Virus genome (UHGV): UHGV-0074612
Origin: a virus
Length of the DNA: 17,318 bases
Strand: one strand, 5' to 3'
The position numbers were made by a program, and so were the translations under genes. Below are positions 9,994-17,268 of the stretch, piece by piece. The notes under the pieces were generated by a model. The model saw nothing but the letters and a program-made list of their open reading frames with translations, ran no database searches and was not told the DNA's origin. Positions within the stretch are counted from its first letter, which is position 1; the number at the start of each line of letters is the position of its first letter.

Positions 9994-10490
9994 TGCCTCC
10001 ATCATTACGAAAAGCCGTTGCTGCTGCTATTGGTGGCGGAGCAATTGCTATAGCATCAGTGTTAATCACTGGCCCAAGTGGTAACGATGGTCTGGAAGGT
10101 GTCAGCTACATACCATACAAAGATATTGTTGGTGTATGGACTGTATGTCACGGGCATACAGGAAAAGACATCATGCTCGGTAAAACGTATACCAAAGCAG
10201 AATGCAAAGCCCTCCTGAATAAAGACCTTGCCACGGTCGCCAGACAAATTAACCCGTACATAAAAGTTGATATACCGGAAACAACGCGCGGCGCTCTTTA
10301 CTCGTTCGTTTACAACGTGGGCGCTGGCAATTTCAGAACATCGACACTTCTTCGCAAAATAAACCAGGGCGATATCAAAGGCGCATGTGATCAGCTACGT
10401 CGCTGGACATATGCTGGCGGTAAGCAATGGAAAGGTCTCATGACTCGTCGTGAGATTGAGCGTGAAATCTGTTTGTGGGGTCAGCAATGA
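9993..10490 (+). CDS. SAR endolysin (phage-21 R / RrrD-like lysozyme)
   Basis: 165-aa ORF with N-terminal Gly/Ala-rich signal-anchor-release segment [20 protein letters not shown] followed by a lysozyme domain; start overlaps the holin stop. Confidence 0.92.
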
Positions 10491-10945
10491 ACAGAGTAAC
10501 CGCGATTATCTCCGCTCTGGTTATCTGCATCATCGTCTGCCTGTCATGGGCTGTTAATCATTACCGTGATAACGCCATTACCTACAAAGCCCAGCGCGAC
10601 AAAAATGCCAGAGAACTGGAGAAGGCGAACGCCACCATCGCTGACATGCGGAAGCGTCAACGTGATGTAGCAGAACTCGACGCAAGATACACAAAGGAGC
10701 TTGCTGATGCTAACGCGACTATCGAAAGTCTCCGTGCTGATGTTTCTGCTGGGCGTAAGCGCCTGCAAGTCGCCGCCACCTGTGCAAAGTCAACGACCGG
10801 AGCCAGCGGCATGGGCGATGGAGAAAGCCCAGGACTTACAGCAGATGCTGAACTCAATTATTACCGTCTCCGAAGTGGAATCGACAAGATAACCGCGCAG
10901 GTTAACTACCTGCAGGAATACATCAGGACGCAATGCCTGAAATAA
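10487..10945 (+). CDS. Spanin inner-membrane subunit Rz
   Basis: ATG at 10487 (ATGA overlap with endolysin stop) gives [21 protein letters not shown]..., an N-terminal TMD followed by a periplasmic coiled-coil-like region. Confidence 0.88.
10701..10892 (+). CDS. Spanin outer-membrane lipoprotein Rz1, embedded in Rz in the +1 frame
   Basis: 63-aa ORF wholly inside Rz; signal peptide with lipobox VSAC followed by a proline-rich segment [13 protein letters not shown]. Confidence 0.8.
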
Positions 10946-11146: not shown

Positions 11147-11644
11147 ATGAAATCATTAACCCTCTTCAATCAACCAATTCGTATCGGTGAAGATGGCATG
11201 ATCTGCCTCACTGATATGTGGAAAGCCAGTGGTAAAAGTGAATCTGAATCGCCTTACCACTACCTGCGAAACAAGCAGACCAAAGAGTTCTTAGCCGAGC
11301 TGGAGAAAAACCACGAATCTGTGGTTTTTACTGAGCGCGGTGTACACGGTGGAACATATGGCGGGAAGTTTGTTGCTTACGATTATGCGGCTTGGTTAAA
11401 CCCCGGGTTCAAGTACGCGGCCTATAAAGTCCTCGATGACTACTTCACCGGAGAACTTCAGCATCGCAACAGCTTAAGTGCGCAGCTCAACATGAAATGT
11501 CATGAGTTTGACCAGAAGAAAGACATGGCGAGCTTCTGCGGACAAGGGCTGGCAGCATGGCGCTATACGAAGCCAGTGTTGGTCGCTGAGATTAACTCCC
11601 TGGCTAACCAGCTGCAGATTACGATCCCCGGGCTTCCGGGATGA
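11147..11644 (+). CDS. KilA-N/Bro-N-like domain protein (165 aa)
   Basis: N-terminal FNQPIRIGEDGMICLTDMWKASGK fits the KilA-N pattern (F..IR...DG..........A.G) by eye. Confidence 0.65.
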   Translation: MKSLTLFNQPIRIGEDGMICLTDMWKASGKSESESPYHYLRNKQTKEFLAELEKNHESVVFTERGVHGGTYGGKFVAYDYAAWLNPGFKYAAYKVLDDYFTGELQHRNSLSAQLNMKCHEFDQKKDMASFCGQGLAAWRYTKPVLVAEINSLANQLQITIPGLPG

Positions 11645-11910
11645 GTGATCGTGTCATTGAATGCGCCTCCAGAGCGGGGCGCGACTTCTCAGAGTTCATG
11701 AAAGGCGAGAAGGGCATGATGGAAGCATTGGCCTCGGTGGATGAGTTTGGCGAGCAGCTGCGCCTCAACGGCTGTGTCAATCATCACTTTGTTAGCTACA
11801 TGATGCGGAACTCGATCATGCAGGCATTCATGGACATGGCAAAAGCCGAGAGGAAAGAAGAGCGCCGGCGTAAGCGAGCGGAAGCAAAAGCAAAAGCAAA
11901 AGTGAAGTAG
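11641..11910 (+). CDS. Hypothetical protein (89 aa) with Lys/Arg/Ala/Glu-rich C-terminal tail
   Basis: ATGA overlap with the stop of the KilA-N-like gene; C-terminus AKAERKEERRRKRAEAKAKAKVK. Confidence 0.6.
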   Translation: MSDRVIECASRAGRDFSEFMKGEKGMMEALASVDEFGEQLRLNGCVNHHFVSYMMRNSIMQAFMDMAKAERKEERRRKRAEAKAKAKVK

Positions 11911-11947
11911 CCATTACAAAGCCCATTTACGGGTGGGCTTGATAATG
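11911..11947. repeat. Hairpin-containing element, copy A
   Basis: CCATTACAAAGCCCATTTACGGGTGGGCTTGATAATG immediately after the TAG of the 89-aa gene; stem AAGCCCA/TGGGCTT (11919-11925/11934-11940). Confidence 0.5.
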
Positions 11948-12134
11948 AAACCGGAATTTATTCTGGGCCACCAGTTAACGGCAGTACCACGAAACAACCC
12001 AAGCCAGTAAGTGGGGAAATAACACCGGCAGCCACTGAAAGATGAACCTCCTGCCTTATGGCAAAAAAGATTCTTTGTGGTGGCGGACTGATGGAAAGAC
12101 ATCCTAATTTCAGCCAAACATTGAAGGAGTTGTT

Positions 12135-12206
12135 ATGTCAGCAGAAGGTTTCAATAACCCATCAAAATTCCGGGATGAGTGGGATAGCAGCGTAAAGAGT
12201 AAGTGA
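12135..12206 (+). CDS. Candidate 23-aa ORF MSAEGFNNPSKFRDEWDSSVKSK
   Basis: AAGGAG Shine-Dalgarno 6 nt upstream of the ATG; stop immediately precedes copy B of the hairpin element. Confidence 0.3.
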   Translation: MSAEGFNNPSKFRDEWDSSVKSK

Positions 12207-12207
12207 T

Positions 12208-12249
12208 GCCATCACAAAAGCCATTCCCTACAGAGTGGCTTTGATAATG
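12208..12249. repeat. Hairpin-containing element, copy B
   Basis: GCCATCACAAAAGCCATTCCCTACAGAGTGGCTTTGATAATG; shares the CCAT(Y)ACAAA(A)GCC ... GGCTT(T)GATAATG framework with copy A, with base changes that still pair in the stem. Confidence 0.5.
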
Positions 12250-12264
12250 GCTTATACCCTACAC

Positions 12265-12290
12265 GGGATAACTTAACTGATATCCCTTTT
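12265..12290 (+). terminator. Possible intrinsic terminator
   Basis: Stem GGGATA/TATCCC (12265-12270/12281-12286), 10-nt loop, then TTTT. Confidence 0.4.
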
Positions 12291-12498
12291 AAAGGATAAA
12301 GGCATTCAAGCCTGACACATCATGCGCTGTATCGTCGCCGTATTCCCGTATTAACAGAGACCGTAGCCCGACGGGGAACTCCTTCTGCGCGAGTGTGCGG
12401 GAATAATCAAAAACGATGCACACCGGGGTTACCGGGTACACATATTTCATCATGCCAGCGAGTCCGGTTCTGGCACGGAAGAAACCGGACGTTATGAT

Positions 12499-12909
12499 TT
12501 AGTGCGGAAATATTTGTGTAGTGTTCTGAATGTTCTCAGTAAAGAGTAATGAATTATCAAAGGTATAGTAATACCTTTTGTTTTCGTGGATATTTGTAAT
12601 CCATCTGAAAACCCCTGCTGTAGCAAGATTTTTCCTGTATTCGTAAAATGATAACTCTCCTGATTTGAATCCTTTTAAGGTGGCTTCTATAAGGCATTTA
12701 TTTTTTGAAAATCTTACATTTACAACCTTACCCTGTCCTTTTATTAAAACCGTATTATCGTTTTCAAGAACAAGATGAATATTCTCTGTGGCTAAATAGT
12801 AAATGTAATGTGAGACATTGTGACGTTTTAGTTCAGAATAAAACCAGTGATAGTTTAAATTATTTCGCACTTTATCGAATATTTGTTTAAAAATGGCAAC
12901 CTGAGCCAT
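12499..12909 (-). CDS. YbcV-like (DUF1398-like) protein, 136 aa, AT-rich
   Basis: Track ORF 12499..12924; ATG at 12909 preceded by GAAGGT gives [17 protein letters not shown]..., matching my recollection of DLP12 YbcV and its 136-aa length. Gene is markedly AT-rich relative to its flanks. Confidence 0.75.
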
Positions 12910-12966
12910 TGTAGTACCTTCCATGTGATATGAGGGGGCGTAGTCTGCACGATTATCTAAATTGCT

Positions 12967-13587: not shown

Positions 13588-13704
13588 ATGAAGGTTAATA
13601 AAAAGAAACTTGCCGAAATTTTCAACGTGGATCCGCGAACGATTGAACGCTGGCAGTCTCAGGGACTCCCTTGCGTCTCCGGAGGTGGCAGCGGGCCATC
13701 ATGA
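13588..13704 (+). pseudogene. Terminase small subunit (Nu1/gp1-like), N-terminal 38-codon stub
   Basis: [38 protein letters not shown] then stop; resembles the Nu1 N-terminal DNA-binding segment (lambda MEVNKKQLADIFGASIRTIQNWQEQGMPVLRGGG). The frame ends where terminase A homology begins. Confidence 0.75.
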
Positions 13705-14570
13705 ATGCGATGGGCAGTGACTACATCCGCGAGGTGAATGTGGTGAAGTCTGCCCGTGTTGGTTATTCCAAAATGCTGCTGGGTGTTTATGCCTACTTCA
13801 TAGAGCATAAGCAGCGCAACACCCTTATCTGGTTGCCGACGGATGGTGATGCCGAGAACTTTATGAAAACCCACGTTGAGCCGACTATTCGTGATATTCC
13901 GTCGCTGCTGGCGCTGGCCCCGTGGTATGGCAAAAAGCACCGGGATAACACGCTCACCATGAAGCGTTTCACTAATGGGCGTGGCTTCTGGTGCCTGGGC
14001 GGTAAAGCGGCAAAAAACTACCGTGAAAAGTCGGTGGATGTGGCGGGTTATGATGAACTTGCTGCTTTTGATGATGATATTGAACAGGAAGGCTCTCCGA
14101 CGTTCCTGGGTGACAAGCGTATTGAAGGCTCGGTCTGGCCAAAGTCCATCCGTGGCTCCACGCCCAAAGTGAGAGGCACCTGCCAGATTGAGCGTGCAGC
14201 CAGTGAATCCCCGCATTTTATGCGTTTTCATGTTGCCTGCCCGCACTGCGGGGAGGAGCAGTATCTTAAATTTGGCGACAAAGAGACGCCGTTTGGCCTC
14301 AAATGGACGCCGGATGACCCCTCCAGCGTGTTTTATCTCTGCGAGCATAATGCCTGCGTCATCCGCCAGCAGGAGCTGGACTTTACTGATGCCCGTTATA
14401 TCTGCGAAAAGACCGGGATCTGGACCCGTGATGGCATTCTCTGGTTTTCGTCATCCGGTGAAGAGATTGAGCCGCCGGACAGTGTGACCTTTCACATCTG
14501 GACGGCGTACAGCCCGTTCACCACCTGGGTGCAGATTGTCAAAGACTGGATGAAGACGAAAGGGGATACC
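13689..14570 (+). pseudogene. Terminase large subunit A, internal fragment (about residues 58-350 of lambda gpA)
   Basis: Track ORF 13671..14630; [50 protein letters not shown]... through ...[14 protein letters not shown] is lambda gpA as I recall. It lacks the gpA N-terminus and C-terminal half; the frame then runs into J-derived sequence out of frame. Confidence 0.85.
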
Positions 14571-14571
14571 C

Positions 14572-15883
14572 GAACACGGCACTGGTCGGCGTGCAGGTGG
14601 ACTCGGAGCAGTTCGGCAGCCAGCAGGTGAGCCGTAATTATCATCTGCGCGGGCGCATTCTGCAGGTGCCGTCGAACTATAACCCGCAGACGCGGCAATA
14701 CAGCGGTATCTGGGATGGAACGTTTAAGCCAGCATACAGCAACAACATGGCCTGGTGTCTGTGGGATATGCTGACCCATCCGCGCTACGGCATGGGGAAA
14801 CGTCTTGGTGCAGCAGATGTGGATAAATGGACGCTGTATGTCATCGGCCAGTACTGCGACCAGTTGGTACCGAATGGTTTTGGCGGCACGGAGCCGCGCA
14901 TCACCTGTAATGCCTGGCTGACCACACAGCGTAAGGCGTGGGATGTGCTCAGTGATTTCTGCTCGGCGATGCGCTGTATGCCGGTATGGAACGGGCAGAC
15001 GCTGACGTTCGTGCAGGACCGACCATCAGATAAGGTGTGGACCTATAACCGCAGTAATGTGGTGATGCCGGATGATGGCGCGCCGTTCCGCTACAGCTTC
15101 AGCGCCCTGAAGGACCGCCATAATGCCGTTGAGGTGAACTGGATTGACCCGAACAACGGCTGGGAGACGGCGACAGAGCTTGTTGAAGATACGCAGGCCA
15201 TTGCCCGTTACGGTCGTAATGTCACGAAGATGGATGCCTTTGGCTGTACCAGCCGGGGGCAGGCACACCGCGCCGGGCTGTGGCTGATTAAAACGGAACT
15301 GCTGGAGACGCAGACCGTGGATTTCAGCGTGGGTGCTGAAGGGCTTCGCCATGTACCGGGCGATGTCATTGAAATCTGCGATGATGACTATGCCGGTATC
15401 AGCACCGGTGGTCGCGTGCTGGCGGTGAACAGCCAGACCCGGACGCTGACGCTCGACCGTGAAATCACGCTGCCATCTTCCGGCACCACGCTGATAAGCC
15501 TGGTTGACGGGCAGGGGAGTCCGGTCAGCGTGGAGGTTCAGTCCGTCACCGACGGACTTAAGGTGAAAGTGAACCGGGTTCCTGACGGCGTTGCAGAATA
15601 CAGTGTGTGGGGGCTGAAGTTGCCGACGTTGCGTCAGCGCCTGTTCCGCTGTGTGAGTATCCGTGAGAACGATGACGGCACGTATGCCATCACTGCCGTG
15701 CAGCATGTACCGGAAAAAGAAGCCATCGTGGATAACGGGGCGCACTTTGACGGCGACCAGAGCGGCACGGTGAATGATGTCACGCCGCCAGCGGTGCAGC
15801 ACCTGACTGCCGAAGTCACCGCAGACAGCGGGGAATATCAGGTGCTGGCGCGCTGGGACACGCCGAAGGTGGTGAAGGGGGTG
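14572..15883 (+). pseudogene. Tail tip protein J, internal fragment
   Basis: Track ORF 14591..16687 begins at a GTG inside J-like sequence ([28 protein letters not shown]...). J homology runs to ...[12 protein letters not shown]; the J N-terminal third and C-terminal receptor-binding region are absent. Confidence 0.85.
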
Positions 15884-16687
15884 AAGGCACATTACAGAAA
15901 TGGAGGTCTGTTCTACCGTTCCTCAAGAGATGGCTATGGTTTTGAGGAAGACTGGGCAGAAGTTTATACCTCGAAAAATCTTCCACCAGAAAGCTACCCA
16001 GTCGGCGCACCAATCCCGTGGCCATCAGATACCGTTCCGTCTGGTTATGCCCTGATGCAGGGGCAGACTTTTGACAAATCTGCATACCCGAAACTTGCAG
16101 CCGCTTATCCGTCAGGCGTGATCCCTGATATGCGTGGCTGGACGATTAAGGGCAAACCTGCCAGTGGTCGCGCCGTATTGTCTCAGGAACAGGACGGCAT
16201 TAAATCGCACACCCACAGCGCCAGCGCATCCAGTACGGATTTGGGGACGAAAACCACATCGTCGTTTGATTACGGAACCAAATCCACGAATAACACCGGG
16301 GCGCATACCCATAGTATTAGCGGGACCGCAAATAGTGCCGGCGCGCACCAACACAAGAGTTCCGGTGCATTTGGTGGCACGAACACGAGCATTTTCCCTA
16401 ATGGTTATACCGCGATTTCAAATCCAAGCGCGGGGATTATGAGCACAACAAGCGGTAGTGGTCAGACTCGTAATGCAGGGAAGACATCATCAGATGGTGC
16501 TCATACCCACTCGCTGTCCGGCACTGCTGCAAGCGCAGGCGCACATGCACATACTGTCGGTATTGGTGCTCATACGCACTCCGTTGCGATTGGCTCACAT
16601 GGACACACCATCACCGTTAACGCTGCGGGTAACGCGGAAAACACCGTCAAAAACATCGCATTTAACTATATTGTGAGGCTTGCATAA
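15884..16687 (+). pseudogene. Side tail fibre (Stf-like) C-terminal region, fused in frame to the J fragment
   Basis: ...[45 protein letters not shown]... with repeated Gly/His boxes ([30 protein letters not shown]) and C-terminus [11 protein letters not shown], typical of lambda Stf and T4 gp37-type fibre tips. Confidence 0.8.
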
Positions 16688-17268
16688 TGGCATTCAGAAT
16701 GAGTGAACAAGCACGGACCATAAAAATTTATAATCTGCTGGCCGGAACTAATGAATTTATTGGTGAAGGTGACGCATATATTCCGCCTCATACAGGTCTG
16801 CCAGCAAACAGTACCGATATTGCACCACCAGATATTCCGGCAGGCTTCGTGGCTGTTTTCAACAGTGATGAGGCATCGTGGCATCTCGTTGAAGACCATC
16901 GGGGGAAAACGGTTTATGACGTAGCGTCAGGGGACGAGTTATTTATTTCTGAACTCGGTCCGTTACCGGAAAATGTTACCTGGTTATCGCCGGGAGGGGA
17001 ATATCAGAAGTGGAACGGCACAGCCTGGGTGAAGGATACGGAAGCAGAAAAACTGTTCCGGATCCGGGAGGCGGAAGAAACAAAAAACAGCCTGATGCAG
17101 ATAGCCAGTGAGCATATAGCGCCGCTTCAGGATGCTGTGGATCTGGAGATCGCAACGGAGGAAGAAACCTTGTTGCTGGAAGCCTGGAAAAAGTATCGGG
17201 TGTTGCTGAACCGTGTTGATACATCAACTGCACCGGATATTGAATGGCCAGTAGCACCTATAGGGTAA
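16687..17268 (+). CDS. tfa: Tail fibre assembly protein Tfa
   Basis: 193-aa [42 protein letters not shown]...; start overlaps the stop of the upstream tail-fibre ORF; lambda Tfa-like length and sequence as I recall. Confidence 0.9.

Follow-up and report, generated by a model that had tools for sequence, protein, structure and literature searches.

The 17,318-nt viral sequence UHGV-0074612 (below, "the window" means this whole stretch of DNA) carries two hairpins, H1a and H1b, each lying directly behind a stop codon in the late region of a lambdoid prophage. Both belong to a family of elements, H1, that is carried by over 100 Enterobacterales phages and prophages of the lambdoid and P22-like kinds and is new to annotation, being present neither in Rfam nor in the GenBank annotation. 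Compensatory base changes and strand-specific pairing point to an RNA element folding on the sense strand of the late mRNA, and models built from H1 and from the RNase III sites of phage T7 retrieve one another's hairpins. Our preferred reading, which we hold tentatively and rate a little below an even chance, is that H1 marks gene ends as a signal of the T7 type, at which RNase III processes the transcript and a stabilised 3' end is left, and is at the same time a mosaic joint.

Two hairpins placed directly behind stop codons

H1a (CCATTACAAAGCCCATTTACGGGTGGGCTTGATAATG; 11911-11947, +) begins 0 nt past the TAG (11908-11910) of an hkbL-like gene of 89 aa, and H1b (GCCATCACAAAAGCCATTCCCTACAGAGTGGCTTTGATAATGGC; 12208-12251, +) begins 2 nt past the TGA (12204-12206) of a 23-codon open reading frame (ORF). 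A first-pass annotation of this DNA had reported two such elements, each right behind a stop codon, and both were found where it had placed them. H1a consists of a lower stem (11912-11916/11943-11947), a 2x2 internal loop made of CA (11917-11918) and GA (11941-11942), an upper stem (11919-11927/11932-11940) and a UACG loop (11928-11931). The corresponding parts of H1b are a lower stem at 12208-12212/12247-12251, an internal loop at 12213-12216/12243-12246, which in the register of the family reads as CA/GA plus one C.A mismatch, an upper stem at 12217-12226/12233-12242 and the loop CCUACA at 12227-12232. The calculated RNA fold energies were -17.0 kcal/mol for H1a (z -3.0 versus shuffles) and -22.4 kcal/mol for H1b (z -5.1), and these single-sequence energies were alike on both strands.

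The flanks that the two hairpins share, written as the gapped motif CATTACAR...YGATAATG or as CCATTACAAAG...CTTGATAATG, would be expected only 0.01 times in shuffles of the window and are not a chance match. The covariance model of the family (model R1, distinct from the T7 site of that name) gave 63.1 bits for H1a and 52.9 bits for H1b, both of which are within its training set, and 12.9 bits for the best unrelated site of the window. That site (12548-12606, -), with the arrangement GGAUUACAAA...AAAGGUAU-UACU-AUACCUUUGAUAAU, lies in the 3' part of the DUF1398 (ybcV-like) gene and is also kept in K-12 ybcV and at locus L128 (5234-5292, -); it is probably a chance match or an old remnant. No T-run follows H1a or H1b and a terminator scan of the window flagged neither, which bears out the statement that they are not simple terminators; a sequence scan found no promoter in H1 either.

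The stem differences between H1a and H1b still pair, as had been described, although they do not stem from a recent local duplication. Exact identity between the two hairpins is limited to 9-13 nt and they represent separate, long-diverged subtypes, each widespread elsewhere, which rules such an event out. The label "duplicated" is therefore better replaced by different subtypes brought together by mosaic recombination, as illustrated by PhiR49_1, in which one subtype A hairpin is joined directly to the sequence that follows H1b in the window.

H1 is a widespread family in lambdoid and P22-like phages

In viral contigs, a pattern scan for the motif gave at least 120 matching stretches, and a BLAST search with a 50-nt consensus hit 119 phage records, in 118 of them at one place per record. 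The phages concerned include HK97, HK022, HK620, L, ES18, SPN3UB, mEp phages and several Stx1/Stx2 phages, together with one Enterobacter and one Aeromonas phage. Absence of the motif elsewhere, which the first-pass annotation had named as the outcome that would undo its proposal, is thus not the case. Parts of the H1 region were present in 2557 of 5426 complete E. coli genomes, and among species-representative genomes the motif was detected in Enterobacter, Leclercia, Pantoea, Siccibacter, Kluyvera, Pseudocitrobacter and E. coli; the few non-enteric matches were about as many as our estimate of chance expectation. Copy number is one or two per genome, with two copies in the window and two in HK620 (AF335538; 18881-18917 and 19130-19175). 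E. coli K-12 lacks H1, though its DLP12 prophage has the same backbone as the window.

All members share one layout, in which a lower stem (C)CAUUA/UAAUG(G), often lengthened to take in the stop codon, is followed by an invariant 2x2 internal loop (5'-CA / 5'-GA), an upper stem of 9-10 bp and a loop of 4-6 nt; behind the upper stem every member has GAUAAUG and none has a U-tract. Three main subtypes could be distinguished: subtype A, AAGCYCAYC-NNNN-GGUGGGCUU, exemplified by H1a; subtype B, AAAGCCAYUC-N6-GAGUGGCUUU, exemplified by H1b; and subtype C, with GCAGGCAUUC-ACU-GAGUGCCUGU and GAGGCCAUUC-AAU-GAGUGGUCUC as examples, which provides the second copy in HK620 and HK97.

A search of the H1 region against Rfam 15 gave nothing at gathering thresholds, the best sub-threshold matches being noise (mir-458, 22 bits versus 59; Proteo-phage-1, 19.8 bits versus 42). 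The GenBank records of HK620, HK97, L and E. coli annotate nothing at H1, and the HK620 record lists many terminators and other sites. Literature searches on boundary sequences, on RNase III in lambdoid late operons and on motif strings in full texts, in a comparison that left Clark et al. 2001 outside, yielded no description of H1, and a preprint on the Pas sRNA and transcriptome papers on phage L and Salmonella prophages do not cover it.

Selection acts on the folded sense strand

In an alignment of 56 distinct H1 sequences, 94.5% of cells were paired and seven pairs showed compensatory double changes, a degree of covariation that none of 500 shuffles reached; when the partner columns were slid by 1-3 positions, pairing fell to 25-51%. 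The covariation check that the first-pass annotation had suggested thus came out in favour of a conserved structure. This first alignment had been gathered with a pattern that fixed the outer flanks and is consequently uninformative about them, whereas between these constant flanks the inner stems differ and still pair (GCCCA/UGGGC, AGCCAC/GUGGCU, GCGUC/GGCGC, GGGCGG/CUGCCC). Information on the lower stem came from divergent copies found by the covariance model, in which changes were compensated (A-U to G-C beside the loop, C-G to G-C, C-G to U.G) and the CA/GA loop was retained.

The nine upper-stem pairs of 64 unique sequences contained 85 G.U cells and 0 A.C cells. The complementary strand would hence bear 85 mismatches, so the sense strand alone folds, and this asymmetry rules out both an RNA made from the opposite strand and a DNA cruciform. 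It also disfavours the protein-binding DNA site that had been one of the earlier suggestions. Many loops are moreover UNCG closed by C-G, namely the tetraloops C(UACG)G, C(UUCG)G and C(UGCG)G, a property of RNA. These patterns in the aligned sequences point to H1 being an RNA element that folds on the sense strand of the late mRNA.

H1 resembles the RNase III sites of phage T7

When folded, the ten RNase III sites of T7 displayed the same architecture as H1 and very similar upper hairpins. Both kinds of element occupy intergenic positions on the sense strand of polycistronic phage mRNAs, with a stop codon just before them, and both combine a lower stem and an internal loop with an upper stem of 9-10 bp rising from AAG/CUU and a loop of 4-6 nt. 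Upper hairpins can be nearly identical, subtype A resembling R1 and subtypes B and C resembling R1.1. T7 R1 (AGGUCAUCUGCGGGUGGCCU) and H1 (AGCCCAUCUGCGGGUGGGCU) share 17 of 20 positions, and among the differences are a pair flipped from G-C to C-G and a U.G changed to C-G; T7 R1.1 reads AAGGUCAUUC-GCAA-GAGUGGCCUU where H1b reads AAAGCCAUUC-CCUACA-GAGUGGCUUU, with CAUUC...GAGUG of H1b identical in both. The elements differ in the internal loop, which is a symmetric 2x2 CA/GA in H1 and larger and asymmetric in T7, and in the sequence of the lower stem (CCAUUA/UAAUGG in H1). They differ also in their carriers, H1 being found in temperate phages of the lambdoid and P22-like kinds and not in T7-like ones.

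The likeness was recovered by model searches in both directions. Run without filters on both strands of the whole T7 genome, the H1 model gave 13 matches, which included 7 of the 10 sites (R1, R1.1, R18.5, R1.3, R0.3, R0.5 and R4.7; rough binomial P about 2e-14), with R1 scoring 19.9 bits (E 0.003). A reverse model, R2, was built from these seven T7 sites only. Its best match in the window was H1b, with an alignment that spans the entire model, lower stem and internal loop included (18 bits, E 0.036), while H1a came fourth of ten listed matches with a score that is weak taken alone (10.9 bits, E 2.3). On the 38-kb HK620 genome the top three R2 matches fell on the two H1 copies, and on 0.94 Mb from 91 lambdoid loci 23 of the 25 matches with E <=1 were H1 in sense orientation (rough binomial P about 1e-58).

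The E. coli RNase III proximal box consists of G-C at pb1, A-U or U-A at pb2, A-U at pb3 and A-U or U-A at pb4, with G-C at pb2 or pb4 being inhibitory (PMC1540722). The base of the H1 upper stem fits this consensus, and AAAG/CUUU of H1b corresponds exactly to pb4 to pb1 in the register assumed. H1a has AAG/CUU and an A.G mismatch, which parallels the U.C at pb4 of R1.1. In the family as a whole, A-U forms the first upper-stem pair in 60 of 64 sequences and the second in 63 of 64, and the third is G-C (52) or A-U (11). As for the distal box, subtypes B and C carry the U.G/U-A pairs of R1.1 and subtype A has U.G/C-G like T7 R1, at a spacing that equals that of R1.1 or is 1 bp shorter according to the register chosen. 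The layout of an irregular hairpin of roughly two turns is likewise seen in H1a (5 + 9 bp), in H1b (5 (+4) + 10 bp) and in relatives (8-9 + 9 bp).

A further T7 hairpin, that of the early terminator TE (GCUCACCUUCGGGUGGGC; T7, L129, 7563-7580, +), is nearly identical to subtype A upper hairpins such as GCUCAUCUUCGGGUGGGC in locus L009, and a single hairpin type recurs in coliphages as terminator, RNase III site and H1.

H1 belongs to gene ends and lies at mosaic joints

In the contexts inspected, H1 was co-oriented with the flanking late genes. A called upstream ORF of at least 30 aa was available for 89 instances, and in 64 of them its stop codon lay 0-13 nt before H1. In the other 25 the longest upstream ORF runs through the hairpin; most of these H1 copies lie directly behind a canonical terminator, and the ORFs that read through them are probably spurious. 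The genes upstream of H1 belong to at least 18-23 unrelated protein families, among which are hkbL-like and Rha/Ant-like proteins, a decoration-like protein, a major tail protein and several that are unknown. Most often H1 stands where the lysis cassette and its accessory genes give way to the packaging genes, and a few copies are found inside structural operons, for instance behind a major tail protein gene.

Clustering of the 120-nt flanks of 122 instances gave 34 upstream and 28 downstream clusters in 54 combinations, with a reticulate (four-gamete) pattern in which five pairs of upstream clusters each share two downstream clusters. Mean H1 identity was 0.925 between instances with the same upstream and different downstream flanks, as against 0.80 for different upstream and same downstream flanks and a background of 0.81 where both flanks differed. 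Identity thus tracks the upstream flank, indicating that H1 belongs to the 3' end of the upstream gene. The first-pass annotation had spoken of a gene-end module, and that description holds in the sense that the hairpin variant moves with the gene before it. The break in synteny is usually at the 3' edge of H1, and identical H1 37-mers were found behind several unrelated upstream genes.

Individual phages illustrate the exchange. Compared with PhiR49_1, the window has an extra module of ~300 bp between its two hairpins; HK620 and HK97 have H1a and the same conserved leader followed by a subtype C hairpin, and PhiR49_1, the window and HK620 accordingly differ by whole modules bounded by H1 copies. 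Phage L has lost the KilA-N and hkbL genes and has kept the last 25 nt of hkbL together with H1 directly after Rz. H1 therefore sits at junctions between mosaic modules, where boundary sequences are expected.

Proposed function and alternative explanations

We propose that H1a and H1b would form stem-loops in the Q-dependent late transcript, each acting as the 3'-end element of the gene just upstream. Host RNase III would bind the roughly two-turn irregular helix and cleave it at one point near CUU^GAUAAUG, on the 3' side of its internal loop; in H1a the putative target zone (...GGGCUU^GAU...) is placed at 11941-11943 (+) by analogy with T7 sites (PMC1540722, PMC3867540). Internal loops limit RNase III to one cut, leaving a 3'-terminal hairpin that protects against 3'-to-5' exonucleases (PMC3867540, PMC1540722). 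The upstream cistron or cistrons would retain a stable 3'-terminal hairpin of this kind and the downstream RNA would be freed with a new 5' end, so that the KilA-N/hkbL segment and the micro-gene segment of the window would each end in a stable hairpin. This mechanism fits the observations that H1 moves with the upstream gene, adjoins stop codons and also follows genes needed in high copy. In addition, H1 may offer phage recombinases a short stretch of homology for the joining of modules. Many unrelated genes end in the same element of 37-41 nt, which thereby lies at the joints between exchangeable modules and is close in length to the shortest segment with which Red-type recombinases pair (23-27 bp; PMC3945230), so that exchange between like subtypes is plausible.

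Several points weigh against the RNase III reading. The single cross-model E-values are marginal (0.003 to 6) and become strong only collectively. The H1 model also matched TE on the T7 genome, and part of the similarity must therefore reflect a common coliphage hairpin type and not a feature specific to RNase III sites. At 14-19 bp the H1 helix is at the short end for E. coli RNase III, and the placing of its proximal and distal boxes is uncertain by 1 bp. The number of copies is also at odds with T7, with one or two per phage genome versus ten sites. K-12 has no H1, so published RNase III maps of that strain are unusable here. Finally, the coordinates of the ten T7 sites are those we take to be given by Dunn and Studier (1983), as checked for intergenic position and fold.

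Among the processing and stability functions favoured by the covariation, the strand-specific G.U pairs, the UNCG loops and the reciprocal T7 likeness, a passive role is the first alternative: H1 might be a 3'-end stabiliser or insulator behind the stop codon, cleavage taking place elsewhere by other nucleases and without RNase III. A stable UNCG-capped sense-strand hairpin directly after stops, its position behind abundantly needed genes (major tail protein, decoration-like protein) and its movement with the upstream gene are all what such a stabiliser would show. We nevertheless regard it as unlikely, if a serious contender, as it leaves unexplained why the CA/GA loop is invariant and the lower stem conserved, and why H1 and T7 RNase III sites retrieve each other, including by full-length alignments through the internal loop. 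Less probable still is a stronger version of the RNase III reading, in which H1 would be a portable RNase III-site cassette common to virulent phages of the T7 type and temperate lambdoid ones, through shared ancestry or horizontal exchange, and would act as a linker for joining by Red/Erf/RecT-type recombinases. Were this true, one element would set both the boundaries of mRNA segments and the evolutionary module boundaries of the late operon.

The near identity of the upper hairpin to that of TE raises the idea of a weak intrinsic terminator or attenuator that would act on polymerase not modified by Q, for instance on spurious or moron transcription in the lysogen, and would be read through during lytic growth; in locus L024 a true terminator is made up of a related hairpin and a T-run. 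An intrinsic terminator combines a GC-rich hairpin with a U-tract, however, and H1 has only the former, GAUAAUG following the stem in all members. TE and H1 thus share an almost identical GC-rich upper hairpin and differ in the U-tract, which H1 lacks, and in the lower stem and conserved internal loop, which H1 has in addition and which play no part in termination. H1 lies directly behind a canonical terminator in most of the ~25 instances with a read-through ORF, and a second one there would be redundant; we consider this explanation improbable.

We would assign about the same low probability to an operator for a specific phage or host RNA-binding protein that recognises the CAUUA-CA / GA-UAAUG helix and regulates the translation or decay of the genes next to it. 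It would account for the conservation of lower-stem and internal-loop sequence while the upper stem drifts with compensation, and for the frequent presence after H1 of two hairpins (H2/H3, see below) whose 3' arm apparently contains the next ribosome-binding site. Against it, no protein co-occurs consistently with H1, the flanking genes coming from >30 unrelated families, and the likeness to RNase III substrates already provides a binding protein.

H1 might instead be a boundary sequence purely at the DNA level, kept because homologous recombination there reshuffles modules and having no function as RNA. The 54 combinations of 34 upstream and 28 downstream flank clusters with their five reticulate cases, the H1-bounded modules by which PhiR49_1, the window and HK620 differ, and a size of 37-41 bp near the Red-type minimum of 23-27 bp (PMC3945230) would all suit it. 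Double-stranded DNA, however, needs no hairpin, and the compensatory changes, the 85 G.U versus 0 A.C cells and the UNCG loops indicate selection on one folded strand; the 9-13 nt of exact identity between H1a and H1b are also too little for homologous exchange between these two. We thus find it quite improbable, a shade more so than the terminator and the operator. The boundary-sequence concept is credited to Clark et al. 2001, the HK620 paper, in a passage of PMC3029335. Like lambdoid boundary sequences, H1 is short, conserved and located at junctions of exchangeable modules, and it occurs in HK620 itself; the former are an idea about DNA whereas H1 shows selection at the RNA level, a parallel drawn here with the concept and not with the published list of Clark et al. 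2001.

Another possible parallel is that of the PeSL (promoter-early stem-loop) cassettes of T4-type phages, reportedly described by Arbiol et al. in 2010 as repeated intergenic elements flanking variable genes. These cassettes carry an early promoter, occur in many copies in hyperplastic regions and may mediate modular shuffling by recombination. PeSL differs from H1 in its early promoter, H1 being promoterless, located in the late operon and RNase III-like. A selfish miniature element of the REP or MITE type inserting behind genes is very improbable: identical 37-mers after unrelated genes and an imperfect palindrome with conserved ends might suggest one, but H1 occurs in one or two copies per genome and in sense orientation in inspected instances, not in the many dispersed copies of both orientations typical of REP/BIME or MITE elements, is confined to the late operons of one phage supergroup, and showed neither target duplications nor an associated transposase, nor any terminal inverted repeats other than the stem itself.

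Weighing these explanations, H1 is best filed as an unannotated family of putative RNase III-type processing/stabiliser hairpins in lambdoid phages that coincides with module boundaries. Lambdoid late operons have long been treated as a single unprocessed message of 20-25 kb. If RNase III cuts H1, these operons would hold processing points that separate the lysis/accessory segment from the packaging genes, selected upstream cistrons would be stabilised, and the debated boundary-sequence model of phage mosaicism would gain a concrete, testable sequence. H1 is present in prophages of roughly half of the complete E. coli genomes, Stx phages included, and a small covariance model detects it with ease; RNA family databases could take it in, and prophage annotation could use it to delimit modules and real micro-genes.

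Sequence between and behind the hairpins

H1a is followed by a conserved leader (11948-12057, +), which was aligned in 24 relatives and occupies the same place in phages that include HK97, HK620 and L. At its start is a small hairpin that co-varies in the consensus fold (ACCGGAAUUUAUUCUGGG; 11950-11967, +). Single-base indels among relatives rule out that the leader is coding, and a long structured RNA extending from H1a to H3 gained no support from the alignment, which is too conserved to be informative and contains 0 compensatory pairs outside H1. Next comes the remnant 5' end (MAKKILCGGGLMERH; 12058-12104, +) of an orf118-like gene, recognised by alignment with the sequence and annotation of phage L; the gene is full length in phages L and ST64T and was shortened in the window by a mosaic joint.

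A Shine-Dalgarno sequence, AAGGAG (12124-12129, +), precedes the 23-codon ORF (MSAEGFNNPSKFRDEWDSSVKSK; 12135-12206, +) that ends at the TGA before H1b. Its peptide, ..G[FY][DN]NPSKFR[DE]EWD..K, was met again in four other variants, all of them preceded by a strong Shine-Dalgarno sequence of their own, and defines a family of 23-29 aa with the core NPSKFR[DE]EW that is encoded just upstream of small-terminase (terS) genes or of H1 (loci L085, L088 and L030) and is unannotated in the records examined. Judged from this conservation, the ORF is probably a real micro-gene; both hairpins would then follow genuine stop codons.

H1b is directly followed by H2 (UUAUACCCUACACGGGAUAA; 12252-12271, +), with arms UUAUACCC-UACA-CGGGAUAA, and then by H3 (AUAUCCCUUUUAAAGGAUAA; 12280-12299, +), which reads AUAUCCC-UUUUAA-AGGAUAA. 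H2/H3 hairpins stand behind H1 in 61 of 122 instances, with stems whose sequence is conserved and without covariation. The 3' arm, (A)GGAUAA, is located 5-8 nt before the next start codon in other phages (for example L126 3040-3070 and L038), a spacing which suggests that it may sequester the corresponding ribosome-binding site. A DnaA box, an IHF site and a CsrA site were all discarded as weak readings of the H2/H3 motif when the sequence alone was considered.

Downstream of the H1/H2/H3 cassette of HK97-like phages, behind a terminator and just upstream of the terminase genes, a conserved ATGCGCATCGCACGCGCA was noticed in loci L028, L042, L024, L125 (3680-3740) and L126 (3270-3300); it may be part of the cos region.

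Gene order of the window

Gene order and family assignments identified the window as a DLP12-like lambdoid prophage. An integrase, the Q region, an nmpC/ompD-like porin gene on the minus strand and the lysis genes for holin, lysozyme and Rz (10475-10945) are followed by a KilA-N/ORF11CD3 gene (11147-11644) and the 89-aa hkbL-like gene (11641-11910, +), which is co-oriented with the lysis genes in the ORF list and whose TAG abuts H1a. The latter is homologous to hkbL of HK620 and to an HK97 gene, and no Pfam family was found for its protein. At its end (11885-11907, +) a hexanucleotide GCAAAA (Ala-Lys) is repeated, in one to four copies among relatives. Beyond the hairpins come the DUF1398 ybcV-like gene (12499-12924, minus strand) and then packaging genes; the backbone common to the window and K-12 DLP12 is quuD-nmpC-essD-rrrD-rzpD...ybcV-ybcW-nohD.

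The terminase gpA ORF (13671-14630, +) comprises the ATPase domain only and overlaps a J-like tail-tip/tail-fibre ORF (14591-16687, +), from which it appears that most head and tail genes were deleted; like K-12 DLP12, the prophage looks defective. A 14-nt sequence, TTCCGGGATGAGTG, is repeated exactly and in direct orientation at 11634-11647 and 12168-12181 (+), that is, at the KilA-N/hkbL stop-start overlap and inside the micro-ORF; the repeat is unlikely by chance within 1 kb and may be the trace of an old recombination joint. Near the end of the window, a full-length match to Rfam IS009 (RF02111), a prophage-associated candidate small RNA (sRNA) with no relation to the H1 hairpins, was found at 17030-17228 (+), with 221.5 bits versus a gathering score of 117.

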